DNA from: Bacteroidota bacterium
Lineage (GTDB): Bacteria > Bacteroidota > Ignavibacteria > UBA10030 > UBA8401
DNA: 54,414 nucleotides
NCBI GenBank assembly: GCA_028873075.1
Contig: JAGWND010000001.1
Span: 1-54,414, forward strand
Direction of reading: 5' to 3'
Positions within the stretch are counted from its first letter, which is position 1. Every line of letters starts with the position of its first letter. The position numbers were made by a program, and so were the translations under genes. The notes under the pieces are model-generated. The model made no database searches. It saw nothing but the letters and a program-made list of their open reading frames with translations, and was not told the origin of the DNA. Shown here piece after piece: positions 1,524 to 42,737 of this stretch.

Positions 1524-1665
1524 GATATCCCGTTATTCGGTTGTGTGCCGAAGTAATATATCCAACCATCGGAAGAATGTCAACGAAACTTCGAGCGCAA
1601 TAATGCAACAGAAATAAAACTTTTTCTTACATTACGGATGCTCACTCGCCACAAAGGAGAACACT

Positions 1666-2082
1666 ATGGTCATTCAAAAAATATTTTCTCTTGCAACGCG
1701 CGGCAACGGTGATATGCACGACATTACAGAAAGCGTTACCAGCATCGTGGAATCGTCGAAGATCCGCACCGGCATCGCACACATCTTCATCGTCGGCAGC
1801 ACTGCATCCGTCGGCACGATTGAATTCGAGCCGGGACTCCAGCACGACTTGCCGGAGCTTTTGAACAAGCTCATTCCGCCAAGCCGAAATTACAAACACG
1901 AGCAGGCATGGCACGACGGCAACGGACATTCGCACTTGCAGGCAACACTAATGGGAGCGGAAATCACCGTTCCGGTTGCGAACAGCACACTTGTGCTCGG
2001 CACGTGGCAGCAAATTATTCTGCTTGAATGCGACGTGCGAAACAGGAGCCGGGAAGTTGTTGTAACAGTGATGGGAGAATGA
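1666..2082 (+). CDS. yjbQ: YjbQ/UPF0047 family protein (secondary thiamine-phosphate synthase-like)
   Basis: 138 aa with an AAAGGAGA Shine-Dalgarno upstream. HDGNGHSHLQATLMG and LGTWQQIILLECD are typical of UPF0047. Confidence 0.9.
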   Translation: MVIQKIFSLATRGNGDMHDITESVTSIVESSKIRTGIAHIFIVGSTASVGTIEFEPGLQHDLPELLNKLIPPSRNYKHEQAWHDGNGHSHLQATLMGAEITVPVANSTLVLGTWQQIILLECDVRNRSREVVVTVMGE

Positions 2083-2121
2083 AAAAATTTCCAGAACAGT
2101 GTAAAAACGTGCGATTTCAAC

Positions 2122-2191
2122 TTGCCACGAATTCTCAAAGGCATTAAGTTTTTTATTTTCATTTCTTTGTGTCTTTGTGCTTTCGTGGCAA
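2122..2191. terminator. long imperfect hairpin between convergent yjbQ and yhhQ, with outer 10-bp perfect stem TTGCCACGAA/TTCGTGGCAA
   Basis: The inverted 10-mers lie at 2122-2131 and 2182-2191. The right arm is built of CTTTGTG-like words (TTCTTTGTGTCTTTGTGCTTTCGTGG). Confidence 0.5.
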
Positions 2192-2195
2192 AAAT

Positions 2196-2921
2196 TCATT
2201 TCCCTCCACTCCACCTCAACGGATTAAAATCCGTTCCTCTGTCGTAATAATCTTGCCGCTCTGAGCGTTTAAGAAAAGTCACCGCTGCGTACGTCAGCGG
2301 TGTTGCAACAATTTCGTATGCCGATTTCACGAGCCATTGTGTCACAATCAGCCGCAAAAGAAACGAGGAAGGAATGATCCCGATGAATGCGAGCGTGATG
2401 AAGATACCCGAATCGGCAAGCTGTCCTGCGAACGTGGAGCCAATGGTGCGCGTCCATAAATATTTCCCGTTGGTTGCCAGCTTCATCTTCGCCATCACGA
2501 ATGAATTGAGAAATTCTCCGGCAAGATACGCCGCAAACGACGATGCGAGAAGCCGGGGCGTGAATCCTAACACCGCTTCGTACGCCTGCTGTGCCGATGC
2601 CGCGGAACTGTAGCCGAGCGTCCAGAACGCCGCCGGCGAAAGCTGAATGCTGATCCACATTGCCGCTACGGCAAAGAGATTGCATCCGAATCCGATCCAG
2701 ATGATCTGCCGCGCACGGGCGTACCCGTACACTTCCGTCAGCACATCGCCGAAAATATAGGAGATTGGAAAAATGATGATTGCCGCGGGAAGCACGAACG
2801 GTCCCGCGGCAAATAATTTCACTGCAATGATGTTGGAAATAACAAGACTTGTTACAAATAATGAAGCAATAGTAGGAAGCCAGCGTTGCGTTGGACGCGG
2901 CGGCGCAGGAAATTCGTTCAT
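2196..2921 (-). CDS. yhhQ: queuosine precursor transporter (YhhQ/DUF165 family)
   Basis: 241 aa, multi-TM. It has FPISYIFGDVLTEVYGY and LWTRTIGSTFAGQLADS motifs. Its start overlaps the queF stop (ATGA). Confidence 0.9.
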   Translation of the reverse strand: MNEFPAPPRPTQRWLPTIASLFVTSLVISNIIAVKLFAAGPFVLPAAIIIFPISYIFGDVLTEVYGYARARQIIWIGFGCNLFAVAAMWISIQLSPAAFWTLGYSSAASAQQAYEAVLGFTPRLLASSFAAYLAGEFLNSFVMAKMKLATNGKYLWTRTIGSTFAGQLADSGIFITLAFIGIIPSSFLLRLIVTQWLVKSAYEIVATPLTYAAVTFLKRSERQDYYDRGTDFNPLRWSGGK

Positions 2922-3394
2922 CGCTTTTTATCCAGGGGATCCTTCGGATGCTCTGCCATGCCTGTGGCTTGACTTTCAGCTTCAACCGTAATGGAGATGC
3001 CGCCGCGTACTGCGAACGCCGCCGTCACCTTGCACCAGCGCGGTGAAAGCGCTGCAACAAGGTCGTCAAGCACAACGTTGGCGAAGTGTTCGTGAAAAAC
3101 CCCTTCATTGCGGAACGACCAGAAGTACAGCTTCAGCGATTTCGATTCGACAATCTTTTTATCGGGAATATATTGAATCGTCACCTCGGCGAAATCGGGC
3201 TGTCCCGTTGCAGGACAAACGCAGGTAAACTCTTTCGTCCGCAGCGTGATCACGTAGTCGCGCTCAGGATGATGATTCGGAAATGCTTCAAGCTTCCGTG
3301 CCGGTTTTGCTCCGCGGCCAAGCAGAGTGAGATTGTCGAGATCGGATTCCTGCGTCAGCGCAGAAGAAACGCGGCGTGAATTTTTCTTCTTCAT
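2918..3394 (-). CDS. queF: NADPH-dependent 7-cyano-7-deazaguanine (preQ0) reductase
   Basis: 158 aa from ATG 3394. It has the catalytic-Cys context CPATGQPD and the QueF motif ESKSLKLYFWSFRN. The longer 236-aa ORF start would overlap the upstream gene. Confidence 0.9.
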   Translation of the reverse strand: MKKKNSRRVSSALTQESDLDNLTLLGRGAKPARKLEAFPNHHPERDYVITLRTKEFTCVCPATGQPDFAEVTIQYIPDKKIVESKSLKLYFWSFRNEGVFHEHFANVVLDDLVAALSPRWCKVTAAFAVRGGISITVEAESQATGMAEHPKDPLDKKR

Positions 3395-3414
3395 AGCCTT
3401 AACAACAAGCTTTC

Positions 3415-4521
3415 CTAAATTCTCCAGTAAATATTTCTTTTGTTGCACCACAGAAGAGTCACCCACAACACAGCCGTCCAGACCAATCCGACAAACATCC
3501 CCATCCAGCCGCTGTACCCGGTGAGATACGGTTTGAAGCCGAGCGAAAACGCGGCGATCCGGACAATCGGCTGAAGAAAATATCCCAGCAGAGCATTCGA
3601 GCCGAAGACAATAAACGCCCATGCCCATCGCTGAACATGCGCCGCATCCATGATTAAATAGAAAATAAGAAATGTGAACGCGCTGACGCCGGAAGTAAAC
3701 AGCGCGTATGACGATGAAACAGTTTCTTTGTTCATTCCAAAAACCGGCCAGTCAAAGCGATGAAGCGCGTAACCGATAATGCAAAAAACAGTTCCGATAA
3801 TGAGCGACTGCCGAATAATCGTCCTTTGGTCCCCGGTTGCTATTGCTTCACCTACCAATGTTCCGACCACCGTGATAACGCCGAATGAAATTGATGCCCA
3901 CGGCGTGCAATGGATCGTCAGCGGGCGCAGCATGTCGCCGGAAAGATTTGCAATTGTCCAGAACGACGCATTCGGATCGCCGAGATGAAGCCACCACGGA
4001 ACAGTCAACGACATAAGTTGATGGAACGCCGCAACAACGAACACGGCAATCCACCGCCATAATTTAGGGAGAGTAAAAAGCGCGGCACCCATAAAATATG
4101 CAATACCGATCGCCTGAAGAATTCCCCACCACCACGACAGTCCGAAGATAAGAGAAATATAAATGACGCCAAGAACGATCAGCATTACCGTCCGCGTGCC
4201 GACATGCTTCCACCATGAGGTGCCCCGGCGTTTTTTGCTCAGCGGAATGACGAGTCCGACAATGAACACGAAAAACGGTGCAACAAGATCAGTGAACGTG
4301 AGGCCCACGCCGGTTGTATTTCCGGCGGCTTCCGCCGCGTGATGAAATGTTGTGACCGGCGGGCTTCCGAACCACGACATTGTGAGCGGCAAATTCGAGT
4401 AGCCGGCAACGAGATTTACAAAAATCATTGCAAGCACGGTGAACCCGCGGAACGCATCTATTGAAGCGATGCGAGTGCTTTTCGGAGAAGACAAAGAAAC
4501 GGTTTCATTTGTCATAGTCAA
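3415..4521 (-). CDS. DUF5009/DUF1624 (heparan-alpha-glucosaminide N-acetyltransferase-like) membrane acyltransferase
   Basis: 368 aa, polytopic, with the N-terminal IDAFRGFTVLAMIFVN motif typical of this family. Confidence 0.75.
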   Translation of the reverse strand: MTMTNETVSLSSPKSTRIASIDAFRGFTVLAMIFVNLVAGYSNLPLTMSWFGSPPVTTFHHAAEAAGNTTGVGLTFTDLVAPFFVFIVGLVIPLSKKRRGTSWWKHVGTRTVMLIVLGVIYISLIFGLSWWWGILQAIGIAYFMGAALFTLPKLWRWIAVFVVAAFHQLMSLTVPWWLHLGDPNASFWTIANLSGDMLRPLTIHCTPWASISFGVITVVGTLVGEAIATGDQRTIIRQSLIIGTVFCIIGYALHRFDWPVFGMNKETVSSSYALFTSGVSAFTFLIFYLIMDAAHVQRWAWAFIVFGSNALLGYFLQPIVRIAAFSLGFKPYLTGYSGWMGMFVGLVWTAVLWVTLLWCNKRNIYWRI

Positions 4522-6218: not shown

Positions 6219-6665
6219 ATGAATCAAAAATGGATCGCATTCCTGCGCATTGTCGTCGGCATTTTCTTCATCGGCGAAGGCTTGGGAAAGCTTGGGTGGT
6301 ATTCCTCGTCCGAATTTCTGAAATTGGACCTCGACCGCTTTGCGCAAAACGCGCCCGCTGTCTCTGCATGGTATCAACGACATGTTGCATACCCCGGCAT
6401 TGAAGCGTGGGCACGTCTCATTCCGACAGGAGAAATGCTCATCGGCATTGCACTGGTTATCGGCGTACTCACATTGCCGGTATTGATCGCTGCATTTCTT
6501 CTCGTGCTTAATTTCAATCTTACCAACGGCGTCCTTTTTTCGTGGAGATTTTTTTCGAATCCGTATGCGCTGCTTCTGCTTTCATGCATTCTTATGTTAA
6601 TCAACGGAAAAGCCGGAAGCGTTTTCGCGCTCGATACAAAGATGCGCAGAAGCAGAAAACTATGA
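6219..6665 (+). CDS. DoxX family membrane protein
   Basis: 148 aa, 4 TM, with a GAGGAG Shine-Dalgarno. LRIVVGIFFIGEGLGKL and the hydrophobic pattern are typical of DoxX. Confidence 0.8.
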   Translation: MNQKWIAFLRIVVGIFFIGEGLGKLGWYSSSEFLKLDLDRFAQNAPAVSAWYQRHVAYPGIEAWARLIPTGEMLIGIALVIGVLTLPVLIAAFLLVLNFNLTNGVLFSWRFFSNPYALLLLSCILMLINGKAGSVFALDTKMRRSRKL

Positions 6666-6693
6666 CCTCACGCAGAGCCGCCGCACATTAGTT

Positions 6694-6716
6694 GTCCGAC
6701 AGTTGCACTGTCGGAC
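6694..6716. repeat. REP-like hairpin GTCCGACAG-TTGCA-CTGTCGGAC
   Basis: A 9-bp perfect stem with a 5-nt loop, between the DoxX stop and the RAYT 3' end. Confidence 0.85.
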
Positions 6717-6733
6717 ATGCACCTGTTGGACAG

Positions 6734-7187
6734 TTATACTGCTCCCTTGCGAACAGGATTGTCGTGAATGTAGTTTAACTTTTGCATAAAAAAGTCCTGG
6801 AAAACAATGGCTTCCGGATGACCCCTCGATTGCCAGACCTTGCAATCGTTCCCTTCTCCCGCTCTTTCTGCCGCAGTAGCGAAATATTTCAAAAGCTTGA
6901 TGTTGTTCGTTTCTTTTCAAAAGATCAGAAACTTTGCGTGACGTAAAGCGTTTGAAATCCCGAAGAATGCCGGAAAGATTTCCATCCACCGTTGAGAGAA
7001 TGGTGTGGATATGGTTAGGCATAATAACATAGCCATGAATCGGCAGGCCTTTTTCATTTTGACAGTACTTCAAAGATGCAATGATTGAATTAAAGAAAGG
7101 GAAAGAAACAAATACGCATTGCCAGCCGACAATTGTATCGGTACGGAAATAGTATTCAACATCCTTTGTTAGGGCAAATGGTTTCAT
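6734..7187 (-). pseudogene. REP-associated tyrosine transposase (RAYT, IS200/Y1_Tnp-like), frameshifted near 6905-6925
   Basis: From ATG 7187: YYFRTDTIVGWQCVF...SLKYCQNEKGLPIHGYVIMPNHIHTILS (HUH = HIH)...RDFKRFTSRKVSDLLK. The +1 frame then gives LLKYFATAAERAGEGNDCKVWQSRGHPEAI..QKLNYIHDNPVRKGAV with a stop at 6734-6736. The shift lies at T4/A4 runs. Confidence 0.8.
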
Positions 7188-7231
7188 TTGTTGAGCTTTG
7201 TAGGAAGAGTTAAACTCTTCCCACAGTTTGT

Positions 7232-7254
7232 GTTCGACAGTGCAACTGTCGAAC
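7232..7254. repeat. REP-like hairpin GTTCGACAG-TGCAA-CTGTCGAAC, an inverted copy of 6694-6716
   Basis: A 9-bp perfect stem. It differs from the reverse complement of the first copy by a C>T / G>A compensatory pair. Confidence 0.85.
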
Positions 7255-7271
7255 AACTTGCGTGAAATTTT

Positions 7272-9449
7272 CTAATACTTCCCGTACCACACGTCATCGG
7301 AAGAGACGAACGGCTCACTCAGATATTTTTCCGCTTCGATGATCGTCACCGCCGCTTCCGCAGGCGTGCGCCCGGCAACGCTTAACGCCTGACGGTACAG
7401 CTGCAGCGCTTCATCCCGCCTTCCCTTCATTTCGATTGCATTTCCCAATCTCACTAAACTCATTGAAGGAATCCATCGTTCCTGCTCCGCCGCCTCTAAC
7501 AACGATGCCTGGCGGAAATAGGAATCCGCTTTCACAAGGTCGTTCCTCAACACGGCGATTTTTCCAAGCGAAAAAAGCGCCGGCGGATTGCTGCCTGTCA
7601 AGTTATACGGATCAAGCTGCAGTGCCAGCAGCGCTTCCTTTTCCGCATTGACGACGTCGTGGCTGAACACGCGGTAGCTTTCCGATGTACGGGCGTGTGC
7701 AAGAAGACGAAGCTGCGGCACCCAGCGCAGCACGTTGTACTCGGGATCGAATTCCACGTTCAACGGTTTGTCGGCAACAACAAATTCAAACGTCTGGTCC
7801 TGCCGTTGTAAAAATATTCGCTTCGGTACCGCACGTGAAGCAGTTGTGATCACAACATCCGCCGGCGTAACATACACGTCGCCGCGCTGAACAACGCGCA
7901 CACGCACCGTGTAACTGCCGCGCACTGTCGGCACAACATCCGAAGAAAAAACAAGCTCGGGAAATCCTGTGCGGTACACCCATTCATCGAAGAACCAATC
8001 AAGCGGTGTGCCGTACGCTTCCTCGCACAGTTGTTGAAATTCCGGAATCGTGATCGGCGTAGCGTGGTATGCGGAATACATTTTATAAATCACCTCATCG
8101 AACGATTCCTTGCCGAGAATATACTCTAACATCGAAAACACGTACCCGCCTTTGCGGGAAAAAACCGCAGTCTCATTTTTCCGTTGCCGTTCTGCAGCGA
8201 CCGGATAGGTCGGATAAAAATCGAGCGCGCCCGCCATCAAGCGAAGACGTTCATGCTGCCGCTGCGCTCCCGTTGCATCAGTCTTCTCTAAAAAAAATCG
8301 GGATGAAAGATAGCTCGCCCATCCTTCATTGAACCAAAATGTTGAATCCGTTGCAGCGATCCCAAAGGAATGAGAAAGATCGTGCACCCACATATTGTCG
8401 GCGGAAAGCTGAAGCAGCGATGAGTCGAGAACGGTGAACGCCGGTGAATTTTTTATGATAAATGTGCCGTCCCTTGAAAATTGCTCCGCGTTTTTCTCTC
8501 CACTGCCGATAACGGCAAAACGAAACTGAAGGCTTTTCTCAGAATGATGTTCGATTGGGAAACGAGAAATTTCCGAAGGGGTAAGTGTCAACGCAGAAAA
8601 GAATTCTGCTGCCGCACCAAGCTGGTGCACAACGTATCCGGCAAGATCGCTGCTGAATTGCGCGGGTGAAAAGTACAAAGAAACATGAACGGAACTGTCG
8701 GCGCTGACGAACGATTTTTCCGAAAACTCTTTCGACGCACAGAAAAGAAATGCATTGTTCACCGGCATGTTGTGTTTATGATGAAAGCTCCATTCGATAG
8801 GACCGTCCGGTAAATGCGCTGTGTCGCACTCCCCGCTGGAAACGGCTACATATGAAGCCGGAAGAGCAACAGAGAGCGTGACATTGGCCGTTTGTTCCGA
8901 CGAATCCACGCCGGACAATAAAATGGGCCACCACCGTGCGTCGTGATCCGCCGGCAGGCGTGCCTGCGCAAAGCCGATGCGTTGCTTCGGCGGAGGCAGG
9001 AGAATATTTCCATCGGTAATAAATGTGGAAGACGTCAGCGGCGAATCTATTTCGGCGTTATACAACAACCGGAGAAAAAAGAGGGCGCCGCTTCGAAGTG
9101 CGCCGGGAATAGAAACATCAACATCGGTTGTTCCGTCATCAAGCCTCGTAATCTTTCTTGAAAGCTTTCCGCCTGTTGTGTCGCGTGCTGAATCGAAATC
9201 CAATATCCTGCTGAAAGAAAAATGAAGCACGGAAAGCGAATCTTTCAAAAGGCGAATCCTCATTTGCGCTTCTGCGGAAAACGAATGGCGTTCAGGGGTG
9301 ATCGAAAGATGCAGCGAGTACAGTTCGATCTTTGCGGAAGCGCTGCCGGTTTGCCCGAAGACGCCAACAGAATTCGAACCAGAGAGAAAAAAAATTGAAA
9401 ATGCGAACAGCCCTAATGGAGTTTTCAAAAAGCCTGCGATGTATTTCAT
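7272..9449 (-). CDS. M1-family (aminopeptidase N-like) secreted protein with a C-terminal TPR region; the zinc motif is degenerate (HDLSH)
   Basis: 725 aa with a signal peptide. VHDLSHSF...WFNEGWASY aligns to the M1 HEXXH-X18-E motif with Glu replaced by Asp. The C-terminus has TPR-like repeats. Confidence 0.7.
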   Translation of the reverse strand: MKYIAGFLKTPLGLFAFSIFFLSGSNSVGVFGQTGSASAKIELYSLHLSITPERHSFSAEAQMRIRLLKDSLSVLHFSFSRILDFDSARDTTGGKLSRKITRLDDGTTDVDVSIPGALRSGALFFLRLLYNAEIDSPLTSSTFITDGNILLPPPKQRIGFAQARLPADHDARWWPILLSGVDSSEQTANVTLSVALPASYVAVSSGECDTAHLPDGPIEWSFHHKHNMPVNNAFLFCASKEFSEKSFVSADSSVHVSLYFSPAQFSSDLAGYVVHQLGAAAEFFSALTLTPSEISRFPIEHHSEKSLQFRFAVIGSGEKNAEQFSRDGTFIIKNSPAFTVLDSSLLQLSADNMWVHDLSHSFGIAATDSTFWFNEGWASYLSSRFFLEKTDATGAQRQHERLRLMAGALDFYPTYPVAAERQRKNETAVFSRKGGYVFSMLEYILGKESFDEVIYKMYSAYHATPITIPEFQQLCEEAYGTPLDWFFDEWVYRTGFPELVFSSDVVPTVRGSYTVRVRVVQRGDVYVTPADVVITTASRAVPKRIFLQRQDQTFEFVVADKPLNVEFDPEYNVLRWVPQLRLLAHARTSESYRVFSHDVVNAEKEALLALQLDPYNLTGSNPPALFSLGKIAVLRNDLVKADSYFRQASLLEAAEQERWIPSMSLVRLGNAIEMKGRRDEALQLYRQALSVAGRTPAEAAVTIIEAEKYLSEPFVSSDDVWYGKY

Positions 9450-9537
9450 GTACCGAGAAAAATTCAGGTGGTTACCGCCCCCTCTCTAAATGTTAGAGTG
9501 GGGTCATAAAAAGATGTCAGACCGCTAAGAAGCGCCG

Positions 9538-9960
9538 TCAGGCATCAGCAGGATGTTCAATATCCATTTCTAATTTTTGTCGAAGATTTACGTACACAAT
9601 CTTCGGGCTGTTGGGTGAAATTTGAATTGCCCAATCTCCTTTCTCATTCCGAACAACTGATCCGAATAATTTGCGCAGGCGAAGCTGCGTGAATTTTTCC
9701 CAGAAGACCCAGCCGAAATACGCATCGGTGCCGTCCACATAAAATGCCGGTACGCGCTCCCCCGGCTCGCACGTTACCTGCTCGACAGTCATTGGTAGGA
9801 AATTGTTCTTCTCTAATTCCTGAAGAAATACATTGCTCACATCAACGCCCGAAAAAAGCAATTCGTGCTTCGCACGCTTCACCGTTTTACCTTCAATAAT
9901 GTCGCGAAATGTCTCGCGCAGCTTTTTGTCGAGCTGGCTGCGCGCATTAGCCGTCGTCAT
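9538..9960 (-). CDS. hypothetical protein (140 aa)
   Basis: ATG 9960 overlaps the stop of the upstream hydrolase (ATGA), suggesting translational coupling. I recognise no motif. Confidence 0.55.
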   Translation of the reverse strand: MTTANARSQLDKKLRETFRDIIEGKTVKRAKHELLFSGVDVSNVFLQELEKNNFLPMTVEQVTCEPGERVPAFYVDGTDAYFGWVFWEKFTQLRLRKLFGSVVRNEKGDWAIQISPNSPKIVYVNLRQKLEMDIEHPADA

Positions 9961-36369: not shown

Positions 36370-38583
36370 ATGAAAAAGAATTTTCTTACAATACAACCGA
36401 ATCATAGCCATTCCCGCCCCGCTTACAGCGGGGTAAACTCCAGCGGGAATCCATTCTTTAATCAAATTTTTGCAAATGGATTCCCGACAAAAGCGTTCGG
36501 GAATAACGCCATTGTTGTTGCGCGCAACTTCTGTGTTTTGCTCCTTCTTGCAATTCTTTTTGTTGCCCCGTCATCGGCGCAGCTTGACCGCAGCAAAATT
36601 CCTCCGCCGGGACCGGCGCCGGCAATCGCGTTTCCGAATTACGAGCTGCTGACAACGCGCAACGGCATCCGCGTCATCATCGTGCGAAACACCGAACTGC
36701 CGACCGTGAGCATGCACTTGCTGATTGACCGTAAGCCCGCTCTCGAAGGAACATATGCAGGCGTTATTGATATTGCCGGACAATTGCTGCGTGACGGAAC
36801 GACAACGCGCACAAAAGACCAGCTCGATGAAGAAGTGGACGTGATCGGCGCCGAACTTTCCTCCGGCGGTACTACTGTTTCCGCTTCAGGGCTTTCGAAA
36901 TACACCGGAAAGCTGTTTGAATTGATGTCCGACATTACGCTCCGTCCCTCGTTCCCGCAGGATGAGCTTGACAAACTGAAAATGCAAACCGAATCGGGAC
37001 TGAAATTCAGAAAGACCGAGCCGAACGCCATCGTGAATGTCGTGCGCCAGAGAATTCTCTACGGCAACAATCACCCGTACGGCGAAGTGGAAACGGAACA
37101 AACAGTCGCCAACATCACGCGCGACAAGTGCATTGAAACGTACAACGCATACTTCAAGCCGAACCACGCCATTCTTGCAGTGGTCGGCGACGTGAAGAAA
37201 GATGAAGTGATGAAGCTCGTTGAAAAATATTTCGGCACGTGGAACGAAGGCGACGTCCCGAACCCGACATTCGAAACGCCGAAGCCGCTCGACCGCACCG
37301 AGGTCGCGCTGGTTGACCGCGCAAGCTCCGTGCAATCGGTCATCCGCATTGCACAAACGGTCGAACTGCAGCGCACATCGCCCGACGTGATGCCGGTTTC
37401 CGTGATGAACACATTGTTAGGCGGCGGTTCGTATTTCCGGCTATTCGAAAATCTCCGGGAAAAGCACGGCTACACCTACGGCGCGTACAGCAGCATCGGA
37501 CCGGATGAGTTGATCGGCGCTTTCACCGCATCAACCTCCGCCCGGAATTCCGTTACCGACAGCTCGATCGCACAAATGATCTACGAAATCAAGCGCATCC
37601 GCGCTGAAAAACCGGACAGCACCGAGCTGCAGATGGCGAAGAATTACATGAGCGGCGGCTTCGTGCGAAGCCTTGAAAATCCCGGCACCATCGCGCAGGA
37701 CGCTATCGAGATCGAGCGGTACCATCTTCCGAAAAATTATTACAAGACATATCTCAAACGCCTCGATGAAGTAACCGCCGGCGATGTCGAGCAGGCGGCG
37801 GAAAAATATCTGCATCCCGATCATGAACTGATCGCCGTTGTCGGGAAAGCGAGCGAGATCAAAAGCACGTTAACGCAATTCGGTCCGGTGGCGATGTATG
37901 ATGAAGAAGGAAATCTGATTCCCGAGAAACCGGCGGAAAACATCACGATCACCCCGGACGAAATTTTCAACAAGTTCATGGAAAAATCCGGCGGCAAAGC
38001 AAAGTTAGATTCCATCAAAGACAAGACAATGGAAATGAGCGGCACAATGATGGGCATGACAATTTCTGTAAAAACTGTCGAGAAGGCGCCGAACAAAGTG
38101 TACTCCGAATCGAAGTTCGGAGAATTTTCACAGAAGACGGGCTTCGACGGCGAGCACGGATGGATGTCGTCGGCACGCGGCGAGATGGAGATGACCGGAA
38201 AGCAGCTTGAAGGGATGAAGATCGAAGCGCAGACGAATTTCTACGAGCATTACAAAGAAATGGGTGTTACTCCGATCATCGCAGGGACAAAAATTATTTC
38301 AGGAAAGGGCTGCTACGAAGTGCATTTCACAACGGCGGACAGCGTCGAGTTCAGCCAGTATTTTTCCAAAGATGATTTCCTGAAAGTACGCGATGCGAAA
38401 ACGCTCGACACGCCGCAAGGCCCGATTGAACAGATCACCGATTACTCGGACTATAAAGATTTCAACGGTTATCTCGTGCCGACACACATTGTGCAAAGCG
38501 TGATGGGACGATCAATAGAATTGAAGCTTGACAAGTTCAGCGTGAACACCGGCGTGGAGGATTCGCTGTTTGTGAAGCCGTGA
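36370..38583 (+). CDS. M16 family peptidase-like protein lacking HxxEH (non-catalytic partner) with a C-terminal extra domain
   Basis: 737 aa with an AAGGAG Shine-Dalgarno 8 nt before the ATG. It has M16 fold motifs but no HxxEH. About 45 unusual codons precede the signal-peptide-like segment. Confidence 0.85.
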   Translation: MKKNFLTIQPNHSHSRPAYSGVNSSGNPFFNQIFANGFPTKAFGNNAIVVARNFCVLLLLAILFVAPSSAQLDRSKIPPPGPAPAIAFPNYELLTTRNGIRVIIVRNTELPTVSMHLLIDRKPALEGTYAGVIDIAGQLLRDGTTTRTKDQLDEEVDVIGAELSSGGTTVSASGLSKYTGKLFELMSDITLRPSFPQDELDKLKMQTESGLKFRKTEPNAIVNVVRQRILYGNNHPYGEVETEQTVANITRDKCIETYNAYFKPNHAILAVVGDVKKDEVMKLVEKYFGTWNEGDVPNPTFETPKPLDRTEVALVDRASSVQSVIRIAQTVELQRTSPDVMPVSVMNTLLGGGSYFRLFENLREKHGYTYGAYSSIGPDELIGAFTASTSARNSVTDSSIAQMIYEIKRIRAEKPDSTELQMAKNYMSGGFVRSLENPGTIAQDAIEIERYHLPKNYYKTYLKRLDEVTAGDVEQAAEKYLHPDHELIAVVGKASEIKSTLTQFGPVAMYDEEGNLIPEKPAENITITPDEIFNKFMEKSGGKAKLDSIKDKTMEMSGTMMGMTISVKTVEKAPNKVYSESKFGEFSQKTGFDGEHGWMSSARGEMEMTGKQLEGMKIEAQTNFYEHYKEMGVTPIIAGTKIISGKGCYEVHFTTADSVEFSQYFSKDDFLKVRDAKTLDTPQGPIEQITDYSDYKDFNGYLVPTHIVQSVMGRSIELKLDKFSVNTGVEDSLFVKP
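36410..36504. repeat. cluster of overlapping hairpins built on ATTCCCG/CGGGAAT words, inside the 5' end of the M16-like ORF
   Basis: ATTCCCGC (36410-17) pairs with GCGGGAAT (36443-50), enclosing CCCCGC-TTACA-GCGGGG. GGGAATCCATT (36445-55) pairs with AATGGATTCCC (36475-85). ATTCCCGA (36480-87) pairs with TCGGGAAT (36497-504). Confidence 0.8.
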
Positions 38584-38603
38584 GTGATTGGCGAATGCAT
38601 CGG

Positions 38604-38634
38604 AGATCTCGTTTACTACATAGTAAACTGATCT
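38604..38634 (+). terminator. hairpin after the M16-like gene (AGATC..GTTTACT-ACAT-AGTAAAC..GATCT)
   Basis: It forms 5 + 7 bp and starts 21 nt after the TGA stop. The T tract is weak (TCTTCTT). Confidence 0.4.
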
Positions 38635-38786
38635 TCTTACGATAAGGTGTTCTCACGCAAGAGCGTGGGAACGAGATGAAAATGAATTGTAATTTCTTTC
38701 AATTAAGAGAGAAGTTGGATAACATTTAACAGTTCACATTATTTAACAGAGGGCATTATAATATTAGTTAGCCCGCATCAACAGCG

Positions 38787-39014
38787 ATGGCTAAAACAAT
38801 CAAGGAGCAGCGTATGGAACAACAAAAAACCCAGCAGATGCCGCCTCAAATGGCGCAACAATGTTCTGATTGTAATGGGACTGGACGTTGTAAATATTGT
38901 AAAGGTTCGGGTAAATGGGGCTACCCTGGTTATGGCAAGCCCGGCGACAAACCTTGTCCAAACTGTCAAGGTTCGGGTGTTTGTCAATGGTGTCGAGGAC
39001 GTGGTACACGTTAA
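38787..39014 (+). CDS. small DnaJ-type (CR-type) zinc-finger protein with four CxxCxGxG repeats
   Basis: CSDCNGTG, CKYCKGSG, CPNCQGSG and CQWCRGRG follow a Gln-rich N-terminus. An AGGAG Shine-Dalgarno 6 nt before the internal ATG 38814 favours a 66-aa product. Confidence 0.6.
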   Translation: MAKTIKEQRMEQQKTQQMPPQMAQQCSDCNGTGRCKYCKGSGKWGYPGYGKPGDKPCPNCQGSGVCQWCRGRGTR

Positions 39015-39018
39015 TTCA

Positions 39019-39051
39019 AAATGGGAATGAGAGAAACTCTCATTCCCATTT
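39019..39051 (+). terminator. perfect 15-bp hairpin between the two cassette genes (AAATGGGAATGAGAG-AAA-CTCTCATTCCCATTT)
   Basis: It starts 5 nt after the stop codon and is followed by GCTAATTTTG, a weak U tract. Confidence 0.6.
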
Positions 39052-39083
39052 GCTAATTTTGATGCGCAAATTGATTGCTACTA

Positions 39084-39491
39084 ATGGAAAGATTTGATTT
39101 TATATTATCAGAACAAGAGTCTATTTCGCTTCAAGAACGCAACTTAAATACGGGAGATATTGCTGTTGAAATTTGTAAGATTTATTTTCAGCACCAATAT
39201 ATTGGCGCAACTTTTATAGAAAATCCAGAAGCCGGCGTTGATTTGGAAGTAATTGTTCCCCAACGACCAAATCTTCAAATTGAAGTGAAGGGCACTGAAG
39301 AACGAGGGCTTGCACCATACCAACTTGGCGTTTCTGGTAATCATTCATTTCAGCGTCTCTTTAATGGCTTGCCATTGTATAGAGTTTCCAATGTTCGTCA
39401 ACGAGAGATTACGATTTGGATACTTACTTGTCCTGCTGACTTCAGAATGGAACCAGAACCACGTTGGAGAATAATTCTCAATCAAAACTAA
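39084..39491 (+). CDS. hypothetical protein with a PD-(D/E)xK restriction-endonuclease-like motif arrangement (DUF3883/NERD-like size)
   Basis: 135 aa from ATG 39084. DIAVEICK ... GVDLEVIV-10 aa-LQIEVKGT follows the E / D / ExK pattern. I see no clear Shine-Dalgarno. Confidence 0.55.
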   Translation: MERFDFILSEQESISLQERNLNTGDIAVEICKIYFQHQYIGATFIENPEAGVDLEVIVPQRPNLQIEVKGTEERGLAPYQLGVSGNHSFQRLFNGLPLYRVSNVRQREITIWILTCPADFRMEPEPRWRIILNQN

Positions 39492-39618
39492 TTAAATACA
39501 CATATAATGCGGGCAAACCTCTTTAATAAGTAAAAAGCTAAGAGATTTACTGAATAGTGCGAAACACGATAGCAAGCGGGGAGCTTCAGAAATGTGTAGA
39601 TTGTAGTATAGAAAATAG

Positions 39619-39643
39619 ATGCCCGATAAAAACATTCGGGCAT
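39619..39643. repeat. hairpin ATGCCCGA-TAAAAACAT-TCGGGCAT, same geometry as 36480-36504
   Basis: An 8-bp stem with a 9-nt loop. The stem differs from the other copy by a compensated pair, and the loops read YAAAARCRT. Confidence 0.7.
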
Positions 39644-39675
39644 GACGACCTTATCCAAAAACAAAGGAGTAAATC

Positions 39676-40602
39676 ATGACCACTTCATTCTTTATTGTTG
39701 CGTTCACCGCTTTAGGTATTGCTCTGCTCGGTGCGAGAGCAAGGAACGTCGCTTATCCCGTTAATTTTAAGAAACTCGGATATGCAAGCTTCGGGTTAGC
39801 GGTCGTAGCTTTTATCGGCGGTTCGTTTACCATTATTGAGCCGGGGTACGTCGGCGTTCCCGTCACATTCGGCAACGTGGGGTCACACTCTCTTCCTGCC
39901 GGATTTCACCCGATATTCTTTTTGACCGATGTCTATAAAATGTCCATTCAGACGAAAGATTATACCATGTCTTCGGTCCGCAGCGAAGGTGCCAGAGAGG
40001 GCGACGATGCTGTCGCCACGCTGTCGCGCGATCAGCTTATCCTGAAATTTGATGTGACTGTCTGGTTTCATTTAGATCCGTCGCAGGCAAATAATGTGTA
40101 CAGCAATATTGGTTTGAATTACGAAGATGTGATTGTGAGGCCGGCGATCAGAACTGCGCTGGTCAATGCCGCCACGAAGTTTGATGCCAGCGACGTGATG
40201 TCGCTCCAGCGAGATGCCTACACGAAAATGGTTACCGATTTATTGTTAGGGGAGTTGAGCGGCAAAGGTGTCGTTTTGGACCGTGTGCTTATCAGGAACG
40301 TAGAACCGCCCGAAACCGTCAGCGATGCGATTGCAGCGAAGCTGAAAGCTTCCCAGCAAGCGCAGCAAATGGAATACACCATACAGTACGCTCAGAAGGA
40401 AGCACAGCGAAAAGCGATCGAGGCGCAGGGCATCGCAAACGCTCAAAAAATAATCAACAACGGATTGACGCAGAACTATCTGCAATGGTATTACATCTCT
40501 CAGCTTAAAGAGCTGGTGAATAGCCCCAACAACACAACACTCATTTTGCCGTACGATCAAAAACTGATGCCGCTCTTGAATATCGGCGGCGGCAAGAAGT
40601 AA
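39676..40602 (+). CDS. SPFH/Band-7 (prohibitin/HflC-like) membrane protein
   Basis: 308 aa with an AAAGGAG Shine-Dalgarno and an N-terminal TM. The SPFH core includes IIEPGYVGVPVTFG and a coiled-coil AQQMEY..AQKEAQRKAIEAQGIANAQ. Confidence 0.9.
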   Translation: MTTSFFIVAFTALGIALLGARARNVAYPVNFKKLGYASFGLAVVAFIGGSFTIIEPGYVGVPVTFGNVGSHSLPAGFHPIFFLTDVYKMSIQTKDYTMSSVRSEGAREGDDAVATLSRDQLILKFDVTVWFHLDPSQANNVYSNIGLNYEDVIVRPAIRTALVNAATKFDASDVMSLQRDAYTKMVTDLLLGELSGKGVVLDRVLIRNVEPPETVSDAIAAKLKASQQAQQMEYTIQYAQKEAQRKAIEAQGIANAQKIINNGLTQNYLQWYYISQLKELVNSPNNTTLILPYDQKLMPLLNIGGGKK

Positions 40603-40897: not shown

Positions 40898-40941
40898 AAA
40901 AACTATTTTAAGCTGTAGAAGAAAGGCACGGTTTATTCATA

Positions 40942-41169
40942 ATGCATACTTTTGATGAAACACTCGATGCGGTAATGAATCTTTCTCCGCAGGAACGCGA
41001 AACTCTTGTTGAAATACTTGAGCAGAGAAGAATTGAGGAGTGGAGGAAGGAAACCGCAGAAATGGTAAAAGAGAACACGGCACTCTATAAAACCGGACAA
41101 ATTCTTCCTCAAACTGCCGATGAAGTGATACACAAGCTCCACGCTGCTCTCGATACGCCTGATGAATAA
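40942..41169 (+). CDS. putative type II antitoxin (addiction-module component-like)
   Basis: 75 aa, helical and acidic, with LSPQERETLVEILEQ. The stop overlaps the ATG of a RelE/ParE-like remnant (ATGAATAA). Confidence 0.5.
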   Translation: MHTFDETLDAVMNLSPQERETLVEILEQRRIEEWRKETAEMVKENTALYKTGQILPQTADEVIHKLHAALDTPDE

Positions 41170-41456
41170 ACCCATTCTCTCCCCGCAATTCACGCGTTCC
41201 TACAAAAAAGTTTGTCCGCAGGCAGCCTTCCTTGAAAGAGAAAATTGATGAAACGCTTCGTCTCTTAGAAAAAGATATTGATGATCACCGACTTCAAACT
41301 CACAAATTATTCGGAGTTCTTTGGGTTGTTTAGCGTGCAGTTGCGGTTACAACTGTAGAATTGTTTTTCAATATCATAAGGACGAAGGCTCCGACGAAGG
41401 AATAATGACACTGATGAGGATCGGTACACATCAACAAGTGTATTAACCTTCCTCAG
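41162..41456 (+). pseudogene. RelE/ParE-family toxin remnant with two compensating frameshifts
   Basis: Frame 1 reads MNKPILSPQFTRSYKK. The +1 frame reads KFVRRQPSLKEKIDETLRLLEKDIDDHRLQTHKLFG. Back in frame 1 it reads SSLGCLACSCGYNCRIVFQYHKDEGSDEGIMTLMRIGTHQQVY*. The shifts lie at an A6 run (41204-09) and at a TTTGGG run (~41312). Confidence 0.6.
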
Positions 41457-41507
41457 TTTCTTCCCCTCCAACATCCTTCTTAAATACTTCAGAAAAGGTA
41501 ACTCACC

Positions 41508-42554
41508 ATGAGACCCGAACAATGGGAAACATTCAAAAAGGCGGCGCGCCGTGAAAAGTTGGACAAAGTTCCGATGGCGCTGATCATTGACAGCCCGTGG
41601 ATTCCCGGCTACCTCGGCATCAGCCACATGGATTATTATCTCGATCCTGAATTGTGGTTCCAGTCCAATCTGAAAGTTCACAAAGAATATCCCGATGTCA
41701 TTTTTGTTCCGTCATGGTGGATGGAGTACGGCATGGCGGCAGAGCCTTCCGCGCTCGGCGTGAAGATAAAATTTTATCAGGACAACACGCCGAATGAATA
41801 CCACACGCTCAGCAACATCGAGGATGTAGAAAATTTTCCCGAGCACGAAGTGGAAAACGATGCCTTCATGGCGCTGACGCTCCACCGCATCAGAATGCAG
41901 CGGCAGCGCATTTTGGACACGGGGGAAATCCTTCCTCTCGTTACGTCACGCGGTCCGCTCTGCACTGCCGGATTTGTCCGCGGCATCACGGAGTTTATGT
42001 ACGACCTCGTTGACAAGCCGGAAGCAGCACACACACTCATCAGTCTCTGCACCAATCTTATTATTGACTGGCTCAAAGCGCAGCAGAAAGCGATGGGAGA
42101 AACCGTCGAGGGAATTTTTATTTTGGACGACATTGTCGGGTTCATCAACGAAGAACACTACATGGAATTCGCGCATCCGTATCTAAAAAAGATTTGTGAT
42201 GCTTTCCCGGAAGACTGGGTGAAAATTTATCACAACGATGCTCAAATAACAGCATGCCTCGATCATTTGCCTGACTGCGGGTTCAACGTTTTGAACTGGG
42301 GAAAGCAAACCGACATTTCCGAAGTGAAGCGCCGCGTCGGCAACAGGATATGTCTTATGGGAAATGTGAATCCTCTTGAGGTCGGCGTGCGCGGGACGCC
42401 GGAGGAAGTGCGTCGCGCCACGCTCGACGTTCTTGAAAAAAGCGGCGGCGAAGGAATCATCCTTTCTGTCGGCGGCGGAACGAGCCCGGGCATGCCGAGG
42501 GAGAATATTTTAGCAATGCTCGGCGCGCTGAATGATTACAACGCAAAACGGTAA
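41508..42554 (+). CDS. uroporphyrinogen decarboxylase (URO-D) family protein, MtaA/CmuA-like
   Basis: 348 aa. The overall URO-D-like pattern includes ILSVGGGTSPGMPRENILAM at the C-terminus. Confidence 0.7.
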   Translation: MRPEQWETFKKAARREKLDKVPMALIIDSPWIPGYLGISHMDYYLDPELWFQSNLKVHKEYPDVIFVPSWWMEYGMAAEPSALGVKIKFYQDNTPNEYHTLSNIEDVENFPEHEVENDAFMALTLHRIRMQRQRILDTGEILPLVTSRGPLCTAGFVRGITEFMYDLVDKPEAAHTLISLCTNLIIDWLKAQQKAMGETVEGIFILDDIVGFINEEHYMEFAHPYLKKICDAFPEDWVKIYHNDAQITACLDHLPDCGFNVLNWGKQTDISEVKRRVGNRICLMGNVNPLEVGVRGTPEEVRRATLDVLEKSGGEGIILSVGGGTSPGMPRENILAMLGALNDYNAKR

Positions 42555-42652
42555 GGAAGAAACGGTTTCTGGATATTTTAAAAAATATTAATGCCGCGTT
42601 GCTCTGGAGTTTTCACGAAGTGATCCCTTAGGAAACTCAAGAACTGAACCCT

Positions 42653-42675
42653 GTGCGGGAGTTCAACTCCCGCAC
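42653..42675. repeat. dispersed hairpin GTGCGGGAG-TTCAA-CTCCCGCAC, copy 2
   Basis: A 9-bp perfect stem. The upstream TCTGGAGTTT word is also shared with copy 1. Confidence 0.8.
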
Positions 42676-42737
42676 AACTAAGGAATCGTCAAAAAATTTC
42701 CTGCCATTTTCCATTTCTCCTCTTCCCTTTTCTTCTC

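Follow-up and report, generated by a model that had tools for sequence, protein, structure and literature searches.

The closest described relatives of the element reported here are integron cassettes and lone cassettes of the SALIN type (bioRxiv 10.1101/2022.09.11.507474; IntegronFinder 2.0, PMC9024848). Insertion of lone cassettes at attG sites has also been described, a route that leaves only G|TTRRRY at the left of the inserted unit (bioRxiv 10.1101/2022.09.11.507474). Toxin-antitoxin systems and single-gene nuclease systems are the commonest recognizable defense cargo of chromosomal integrons (bioRxiv 10.1101/2024.07.02.601686), and the NOV_C domain of HmaA nicks DNA in a manner dependent on its D/E/K residues (PMC11232893). 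The element lies in a 54,414-nt stretch of DNA from a Bacteroidota bacterium (contig JAGWND010000001.1 of assembly GCA_028873075.1; the whole stretch is called the window), between the gene for the second of two M16 peptidases (M16A and M16B) and that for an SPFH/Band-7 protein. It carries two small open reading frames (ORFs), encoding a zinc-finger mini-protein with four CxxCxGxG repeats (gene 1) and a PD-(D/E)xK-fold protein (gene 2). With moderate confidence, we regard the block as a two-ORF integron cassette that was stranded between M16B and SPFH and immobilized by loss of its attC site.

The spacer between the M16B stop (38583) and the SPFH start (39676) is 1092 nt long and holds both ORFs on the same strand, 69 nt apart; its neighbors in the window are housekeeping genes. 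As in integron cassettes, the cargo is on one strand, in a unit of 752 nt between the two cassette-type ends. The original prediction, made by a model from the sequence letters, had described an AT-rich block with two real small genes at this position, and both points are borne out. GC content in 200-nt segments is 0.33 to 0.485 over 38600-39700 versus 0.50 to 0.585 in the M16 genes. Low GC content of flanking intergenic DNA is not diagnostic by itself, because the 221-nt M16B-SPFH spacer of the closest relative (L010; see below) has a GC content of merely 0.416. What decisively sets the two genes apart is the GC content of third codon positions (GC3), which is 0.31 in gene 1 (overall GC, 0.474) and 0.26 in gene 2 (overall GC, 0.380), versus 0.59 to 0.69 in the host genes M16A, M16B, SPFH, and URO-D.

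A scan with the M16B protein, taking one genome per species, yielded eight loci. The closest, L010, is on a contig of a metagenome-assembled genome (MAG) and has the gene order M16A-M16B-SPFH-DUF1272 of the window, with amino acid identities of 89%, 79%, 90%, and 91%, respectively. Neither small gene is present, and the M16B-SPFH spacer is 221 nt rather than 1092 nt, so that the search for an empty site in a close relative, suggested with the original prediction, was successful. DNA similarity to L010 becomes significant again at 39573-39616 (39/44 positions; 0/300 shuffles score as high), while the left flank of the window spacer is unalignable to L010; the indel between the two genomes is 750 to 990 nt and covers the whole element. 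Given this absence from L010 and the codon bias, the simplest reading is that the block is foreign DNA, acquired horizontally. The string GGCAAACC at L010 8077-8084 is identical to window positions 39512-39519 at the right cassette end and lies ~45 nt out of place with respect to the flank common to both genomes; a scar or a coincidence could explain it.

The two 12-mers that bracket the genes appear to have the design of integron cassette ends, which the original prediction missed. They are complementary at 11/12 positions, and the complementarity ends at 12 nt. The left one begins with GTTAGCC (38767-73), which fits the core-site consensus GTTRRRY at 6/7 positions, and this heptamer is also found at the ends of cassette attC sites on contigs L002, L028, L060, L071, and L081. 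The 11-mer GTTAGCCCGCA terminates attC sites on three of them (L028, L060, and L081); in L071, the sequence is GTTAGCCCGCT. On L002, the closest homologue of gene 2 (P0003; 53% identity) lies between two ~160-nt direct repeats whose first bases are GTGCGGGCT..GCTAAC and whose last are CCGTTAGCCCGCAC or CCGTTAGGCGGC. Its bracket is GTTAGCCCGCAC (upstream) and GTGCGGGCTAAC, at distances from the ORF similar to those in the window; the left end in the window is 11/12 identical to the former, and the right end is 10/12 identical to the latter.

Repeats of the L002 type were found on 69 metagenome contigs by a 21-mer scan from the repeat body, many with 2 to 4 same-strand copies 270 to 1400 nt apart. 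One of these contigs, L071, opens with a 173-aa C-terminal piece of an integron integrase (E = 1.4e-57 to TIGR02249), which covers model positions 144-313 of 315 and, as a fragment, scores 195 bits against a full-length cutoff of 265; L002-type repeats follow. The presence of the integrase fragment beside these repeats is why we take them for integron attC sites. Among 30 pairs of adjacent repeats, 22 enclose a cassette whose left end (GTTAG...) is perfectly complementary, in inverted orientation, to the start of its own attC (...CTAAC) over 12 to 17 nt (median, 12 nt), as the circular form of a cassette predicts. The pair in the window is of the same design, at 11/12 positions, and its length equals the median of the arrays. 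The integrase fragment (L071 3-521) and the array (1526-4089) are on the same strand, with the array 3' of the integrase, in an "inverted integrase" layout rather than the divergent class 1 layout.

A generic search of the loci for GTT.../...AAC brackets also picked out cassettes in three further contigs with relatives of gene 2. In L006 (5960-6545), the cassette of the relative P0120 has the ends GTTATGCACAAG and CTTGCGCATAAC; next comes a 95-nt site that has ends of attC type and a fold no stronger than that of shuffles (z = -1.5). One cassette was found in L008 and three in L019 (arrays at 1358-2425 and 7896-9935), the latter with ~130-nt attC-type sites; one of the brackets in L019 holds a VbhA-Fic toxin-antitoxin pair. 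Core sites in L006 and L019 are of the GTTATGC type, with attC-type sites of 95 to 130 nt. In the predicted folds of the L006, L008, and L019 sites, the terminal R'/R'' stem pairs, as does the inner bulged L'/L'' stem in L019, at z scores of -0.6 to -1.5, which are no better than those of shuffles. The L019 MAG is Bacteroidota-like (Por secretion tails), and L006 is from a Bacteroidetes MAG, the same genome and assembly as the empty-site locus L010.

We propose the following route. An integron integrase most likely excised the two-gene cassette as a circle, which would then have been inserted at a noncanonical genomic site by attC x attG recombination. The left junction would then be a hybrid core site, G|TTAGCC..., and ...GGCAAAC at the right would be the first part of the attC belonging to the cassette; most of that attC would since have been lost or have decayed, leaving the cassette immobile. 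The lack of an attC upstream in the window is as expected, because insertion at an attG site leaves only the G|TTRRRY trace.

Several observations weigh against a cassette origin. First, although the inverted 12-mers of the original prediction are confirmed as a pair and can be read as the ends of a mobile unit, the pair taken alone is within chance: an equal pair arose in 31 of 400 trials (~8%) when the intergenic DNA on both sides was shuffled, and across the window 13 GTT.../...AAC brackets with ≤1 mismatch were found versus ~4.5 expected. Second, integron cassettes have an attC, and here no canonical attC was found 3' of the right end (both flanks, both strands; folds no better than shuffles), the window flanks do not align to the attC body of L002, and there is no GTT core site in 39519-39572, before host homology resumes. 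A weak imperfect hairpin at the right end could be an attC relic, with a folding energy like that of shuffles (z = -0.3 to -0.7), and the missing 3' attC requires later deletion or decay. Third, a motif scan of the 54-kb contig detected no tyrosine recombinase, and no other convincing attC was found on the contig; its one other bracket (40931-41171) is AT-rich and doubtful. Fourth, the unit differs from integron cassettes in having two ORFs with an internal terminator-like hairpin. Finally, exact insertion boundaries cannot be fixed, since the intergenic DNA of L010 is mostly unalignable; placing the junctions from L010 was given up, as significant alignment in the right flank starts only at 39573, and loss in L010 rather than gain in the window could formally account for the difference. 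The unit is SALIN-like in being isolated among housekeeping genes, with no integrase nearby; the single attC that a SALIN has beside its coding sequence was not detected by alignment or folding. In view of the missing attC body and integrase, we file it as cassette derived and as neither an intact cassette nor a SALIN. Transposon termini were considered for the 12-mers and rejected, as the outer bases GTTAG/AAAC fit a gene between two attC sites.

Table 1. Positions of the element and its parts in the window
Feature	Position	Strand	Description
Stretch without significant counterpart in L010	38584..39572	.	From spacer comparison; holds the whole element
Candidate promoter, sigma-70-like	38733..38762	+	TTCACA, 18 nt, TATAAT; 11/12 positions; directly 5' of left cassette end
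Left cassette end, GTTAGCCCGCAT	38767..38778	+	Core-site-like GTTAGCC plus 5 nt; complementary to right end
Gene 1, predicted zinc-finger mini-protein	38787-39014	+	4 x CxxCxGxG; 75 aa from ATG 38787 or 66 aa from ATG 38814
Perfect hairpin	39019-39051	+	15-bp stem, 3-nt loop, between gene 1 and gene 2; then T-rich tail TTTGCTAATTTTG
Gene 2, predicted PD-(D/E)xK-fold protein	39084-39491	+	135 aa; NCBI protein KGJ59_00165
Right cassette end, ATGCGGGCAAAC	39507..39518	+	Inverse-core-like GGCAAAC versus consensus RYYYAAC; the cassette's own attC would start here
Weak imperfect hairpin	39513..39550	+	GCAAACCTCTT, 16 nt, AAGAGATTTAC; 38 nt; not a canonical attC

Sequence searches with the gene 2 product against Pfam, NCBIfam, PHROGs, PADLOC, and PDB returned nothing significant, a word-indexed homology search found no protein besides itself, and tblastn gave no match in phage and plasmid records. 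HMMER, run in full against 1.84 billion representatives, recovered 112 relatives at E ≤ 1e-3, 41 of them at ≤ 1e-10. The family, which is so far without a name, thus comprises at least 112 clusters at 50% identity, or 164 clusters at ≥90% identity, and consists mostly of stand-alone proteins of 130 to 150 aa (about 140 aa). Residues conserved at ≥90% in 62 relatives are D53, L54, E67, K69, G70, T71, S84, R100, F120, E125, R127, and W128; a helix 1 Glu (E29) is likewise part of the family consensus.

The single-sequence AlphaFold2 model was of no use (pLDDT, 37.6); when given the alignment of the 62 relatives, AlphaFold2 modeled gene 2 with a pLDDT of 97.1 and a pTM of 0.90. In this model, the predicted strands 54-57 and 64-70 carry D53, E67, and K69 in an alpha-beta-beta-beta-alpha-beta core, and gene 2 is confidently predicted to fold as a PD-(D/E)xK nuclease with D53 and E67-x-K69. 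The fold and catalytic residues suggested by the original prediction are therefore supported by the model, by structural matches, and by conservation. Its proposed E ... D-x-E ... E-x-K motif needs amendment: D53 and E67-x-K69 are conserved at ≥90%, and E55, the second acidic residue of D-x-E, is not conserved. Gene 2 is most likely a putative Mg-dependent DNA nuclease or nickase acting via D53, E67, and K69; such a compact enzyme would cut or nick DNA and might be capable of acting alone.

Foldseek comparison with PDB ranked chains of the SPARDA complex first (E = 4e-3; probability, 0.97 to 0.99), followed by EcoRV and Hjc, and the best matches in a viral library were resolvases, RecU, restriction enzymes, and one NOV_C protein. 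Gene 2 shares the PD-(D/E)xK core fold with the nuclease-bearing SPARDA subunit, EcoRV, and Hjc, with query-normalized TM-scores of 0.40 to 0.47 for the SPARDA chains; the nuclease part of this short-Argonaute subunit is the DREN domain. The resemblance is limited (E = 4e-3 or weaker; identity, 11 to 17%), gene 2 has no Argonaute or APAZ partner, and neither filament activation nor junction resolution is indicated for it.

Gene 2 has a motif layout like that of NOV_C/DUF3883 (PF13020), with which it shares the helix, the G-x-D-L and I-E-V-K-G arrangement, the D...E-x-K residues, and an Hjc-like fold. PF13020 was weakly matched by 15 of the 62 relatives (best E = 8e-5) and not by the window protein, and hhalign of the family against a true NOV_C protein gave E = 1e-4 (probability, 57%) over the catalytic core. 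In contrast to NOV_C, gene 2 stands alone at 135 aa, has an extra conserved C-terminal beta region (R100, F120, E125-x-R-W), and lacks a helicase or partner domain. The family therefore appears to be a distant relative of NOV_C/DUF3883 and not a member. Some relatives are fused to DUF7662 at the N or C terminus (P0018, P0020, P0072, P0029, and P0042), and others (P0055, P0088, P0105, and P0079) have an unnamed ~100-aa N-terminal domain and a conserved C-terminal tail (DRYPLRGEPYRYDRPY...). Both kinds of fusion suggest that the nuclease core is a reusable effector module.

In being a small cassette-borne protein with a nuclease domain, gene 2 resembles the compact integron-borne anti-phage systems (bioRxiv 10.1101/2024.07.02.601686), unlike which its family matches no PADLOC model. 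As cassettes are rich in toxin-antitoxin and compact nuclease defense genes, a defense or addiction role for the family is plausible by analogy.

Gene 1 is, as the original prediction had it, a DnaJ-type zinc-finger mini-protein, judging from its exactly four CxxCxGxG repeats (starting at 38862, 38889, 38955, and 38982), although every family match is below its curated cutoff: DUF7895 (E = 1e-5), DnaJ_CXXCXGXG (PF00684; E = 3.5e-4, 21.2 bits versus a cutoff of 32.7), and anti-TRAP (RtpA; 19.9 bits versus a cutoff of 65). The second ATG is the more likely start, because AAGGAG precedes it at the right distance. With the cysteine-rich domain of DnaJ, gene 1 shares the arrangement of four repeats as 1-2, linker, and 3-4; the spacers between paired repeats are 7 to 9 residues in Escherichia coli DnaJ and 1 residue here, there is no J domain, and the N-terminal tail is Gln rich. 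Its small size is reminiscent of anti-TRAP, a protein-binding inhibitor, and BSD2-type zinc fingers are other small CxxCxGxG proteins. The four repeats could bind two zinc ions, and such a two-zinc protein would be a lineage-specific addition to the cassette.

The gene is nearly an orphan. A word-indexed search of 5.8 billion protein clusters gave one homologue (P0002), which is 64% identical and keeps all four repeats at a much higher GC content; this conservation despite very different base composition argues that gene 1 is genuine coding sequence under selection. A collection of 15 billion proteins that includes gene 2 of the same record has gene 1 in neither length (75 or 66 aa), so gene 1 is probably unannotated in the deposited MAG, and neither tblastn against phage and plasmid records nor a scan of viral contigs gave a match. 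P0002 is on L001, a 649-nt contig (ENA ERZ27237536 k141_1093499) without gene 2. The first 140 nt of L001 recur at 510-649, which implies a molecule of ~509 nt, circular or in tandem copies, that encodes the zinc-finger protein and nothing else. GTTCGCC and GGCGAAC flank the ORF region (matching, by eye, over 8 nt as an inverted pair), and a GC-rich hairpin comes next. A viroid-like rod was considered for L001 and rejected, as its RNA fold is branched and its z score is only -2.9.

The perfect hairpin between the genes, also noted by the original prediction, is unusually stable (-15.1 kcal/mol; z = -5.76), and 0/200 shuffles equaled it. It resembles an intrinsic terminator or attenuator. No Rfam family matched the hairpin when 38300-39900 was scanned, the only matches being chance ones to microRNAs, and its identification as a mini-attC was rejected since it is a perfect palindrome without GTT/AAC boxes. 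We propose that the strong hairpin lowers read-through, in which case expression of gene 2 would depend on read-through and the zinc-finger protein would be made in excess of the nuclease. The promoter match upstream of gene 1 is only a lead, being one of 2 sigma-70-like sites seen in the region versus 2.4 expected.

The original prediction had further suggested that the two genes form a plausible new module, with a nuclease held or regulated by a chaperone-like zinc finger. Comparison across genomes does not support a recurrent module. Ten other contexts in which a gene-2 relative is a separate gene were read, and CxxCxGxG ORFs were sought in any frame. P0003 is between two attC-like repeats (L002); P0126 adjoins type I restriction-modification genes (L003-5); P0120 is in an array of small same-strand genes (L006/7), P0118 is in an array with attC-like repeats (L008), and P0209 is in a cassette array (L019); P0165 is in a conjugative element (TrwC, ArdC, and coupling protein; L009); P0121 is at the end of a type I restriction-modification operon in which a NOV_C protein is encoded as well, a further likeness to that family (L018); P0182 is among amino acid biosynthesis genes, with toxin-antitoxin genes nearby (L020); and P0006 and P0007 are on short contigs (L093 and L095). 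No CxxCxGxG ORF was found nearby in any of the ten (0/10), including those of the three closest relatives (P0003, P0006, and P0007). A conserved partner other than a zinc finger was also considered and dropped, as no other protein is common to the neighbors in these contexts. The usual settings of the family, as a single gene, are thus integron arrays, type I restriction-modification operons that it adjoins, and a conjugative element.

The association of zinc fingers with the nuclease recurs once, as a fusion. The 257-aa distant relative P0102 has an N-terminal CxxC...CxxC ribbon and two CxxCxGxG repeats (CTACGGDG and CWKCWGRG) directly before the nuclease domain, which makes a zinc-finger accessory for the nuclease possible without being the rule.

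It is against this background that a dedicated partnership has to be judged, i.e., that the zinc-finger protein is an inhibitor or antitoxin, a chaperone, or a DNA-binding subunit of the nuclease and that the pair is a toxin-antitoxin or anti-phage unit. This reading is compatible with a cassette origin, and we think it unlikely. The two genes share one bracket, one strand, a short intergenic distance (69 nt), and a similarly foreign GC3; L019 provides a precedent for a toxin-antitoxin pair within a single cassette bracket, and toxin-antitoxin systems make up ~1/3 of the recognizable defense systems in integron cassettes (bioRxiv 10.1101/2024.07.02.601686). With its hairpin, the pair would yield more of the first product than of the second, like an antitoxin-toxin operon, and P0102 has independently acquired a zinc ribbon and two CxxCxGxG repeats at the N terminus of its nuclease. 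Against this, none of the ten separate-gene contexts has a CxxCxGxG ORF or another common partner, gene 2 is missing from the contig that carries the one homologue of gene 1, and gene 1 and P0102 have no significant similarity outside the Cys/Gly motif (E = 0.49). Fusion in cis points to an accessory domain rather than to an antitoxin. Neither gene matched a known defense model in PADLOC, in agreement with the earlier statement that the pair is no named toxin-antitoxin or anti-phage system. An undescribed integron-borne module of ~0.7 kb, in which the zinc finger would be an excess inhibitor or a DNA-targeting subunit and P0102 a single-chain version, accordingly gets little credence from us.

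A horizontally acquired islet of ordinary, non-integron type, with the 12-mers due to chance or to some other unrecognized element, is improbable. The chance probability of the 12-mer pair alone (~0.08) and the lack of an attC, an integrase, or a second attC in the window would fit such an islet, as would the presence of relatives beside type I restriction-modification operons (L003 and L018), in a conjugative element (L009), and among housekeeping and toxin-antitoxin genes (L020). The 12-mers, however, start with GTTAG and end with AAAC, and they are complementary over exactly 12 nt and no further; they also match the ends in L002 at 11/12 and 10/12 positions, at equivalent distances from the ORF, and by a rough estimate both of these matches would arise by chance with a probability of ~1e-6.

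That two formerly separate cassettes were fused by loss of the attC between them, leaving two unrelated passenger genes, is very improbable, even though the gene 1 homologue occurs alone between GTTCGCC and GGCGAAC in L001, a contig with overlapping ends, and the overall GC content of the two genes differs (0.47 versus 0.38): the left end that pairs with the right end of gene 2 is upstream of gene 1, which places gene 1 inside the cassette of gene 2 and not before it, this left end resembles that of the single-gene cassette in L002, the intergenic hairpin is, unlike an attC, a perfect palindrome without GTT/AAC boxes, and the GC3 values of the two genes are similar.

Two other regions of the window were noted. 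The region 40900-42700 is a second difference from L010, with a 75-aa ORF (40942-41169) and URO-D in the window and with DUF1272 directly followed by acetate kinase in L010. The product of the 75-aa ORF is antitoxin-like by eye (a Pfam scan was negative), and a fragment at 41321-41446 (...YNCRIVFQY...LMRIGTHQQVY) resembles, also by eye, a broken RelE/ParE-type toxin. GTTTATTCATAA and TGATGAATAAAC (11/12) flank the ORF, a pairing that AT-rich DNA may produce by chance. At 6660-7258, a 28-nt inverted repeat (6690-6717 and 7231-7258; 93% complementary, each arm palindromic) flanks a minus-strand ORF of 198 aa with ...MPNHIHTIL...; by its sequence, the region resembles a REP-associated or IS200-like Y1 transposase with hairpin ends.

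Read as a stranded cassette, the element combines an integron-type cassette with a PD-(D/E)xK nuclease, both of known kinds, and no new mechanism is demonstrated; its pairing of nuclease and zinc finger is so far a one-off, joined by one fusion (P0102). What it suggests for the biology of this Bacteroidota lineage and of the nuclease family is as follows. (i) Cassettes may become stranded in ordinary chromosomal spacers and lose their attC, with a 12-nt inverted bracket and foreign codon usage as the traces left. (ii) Such relics would escape attC-based detection, and cassette traffic into genomes, here of a Bacteroidota lineage, may be undercounted. (iii) The unnamed PD-(D/E)xK family of ~140 aa defined here is widespread and is a reasonable candidate for a minimal defense or addiction nuclease.

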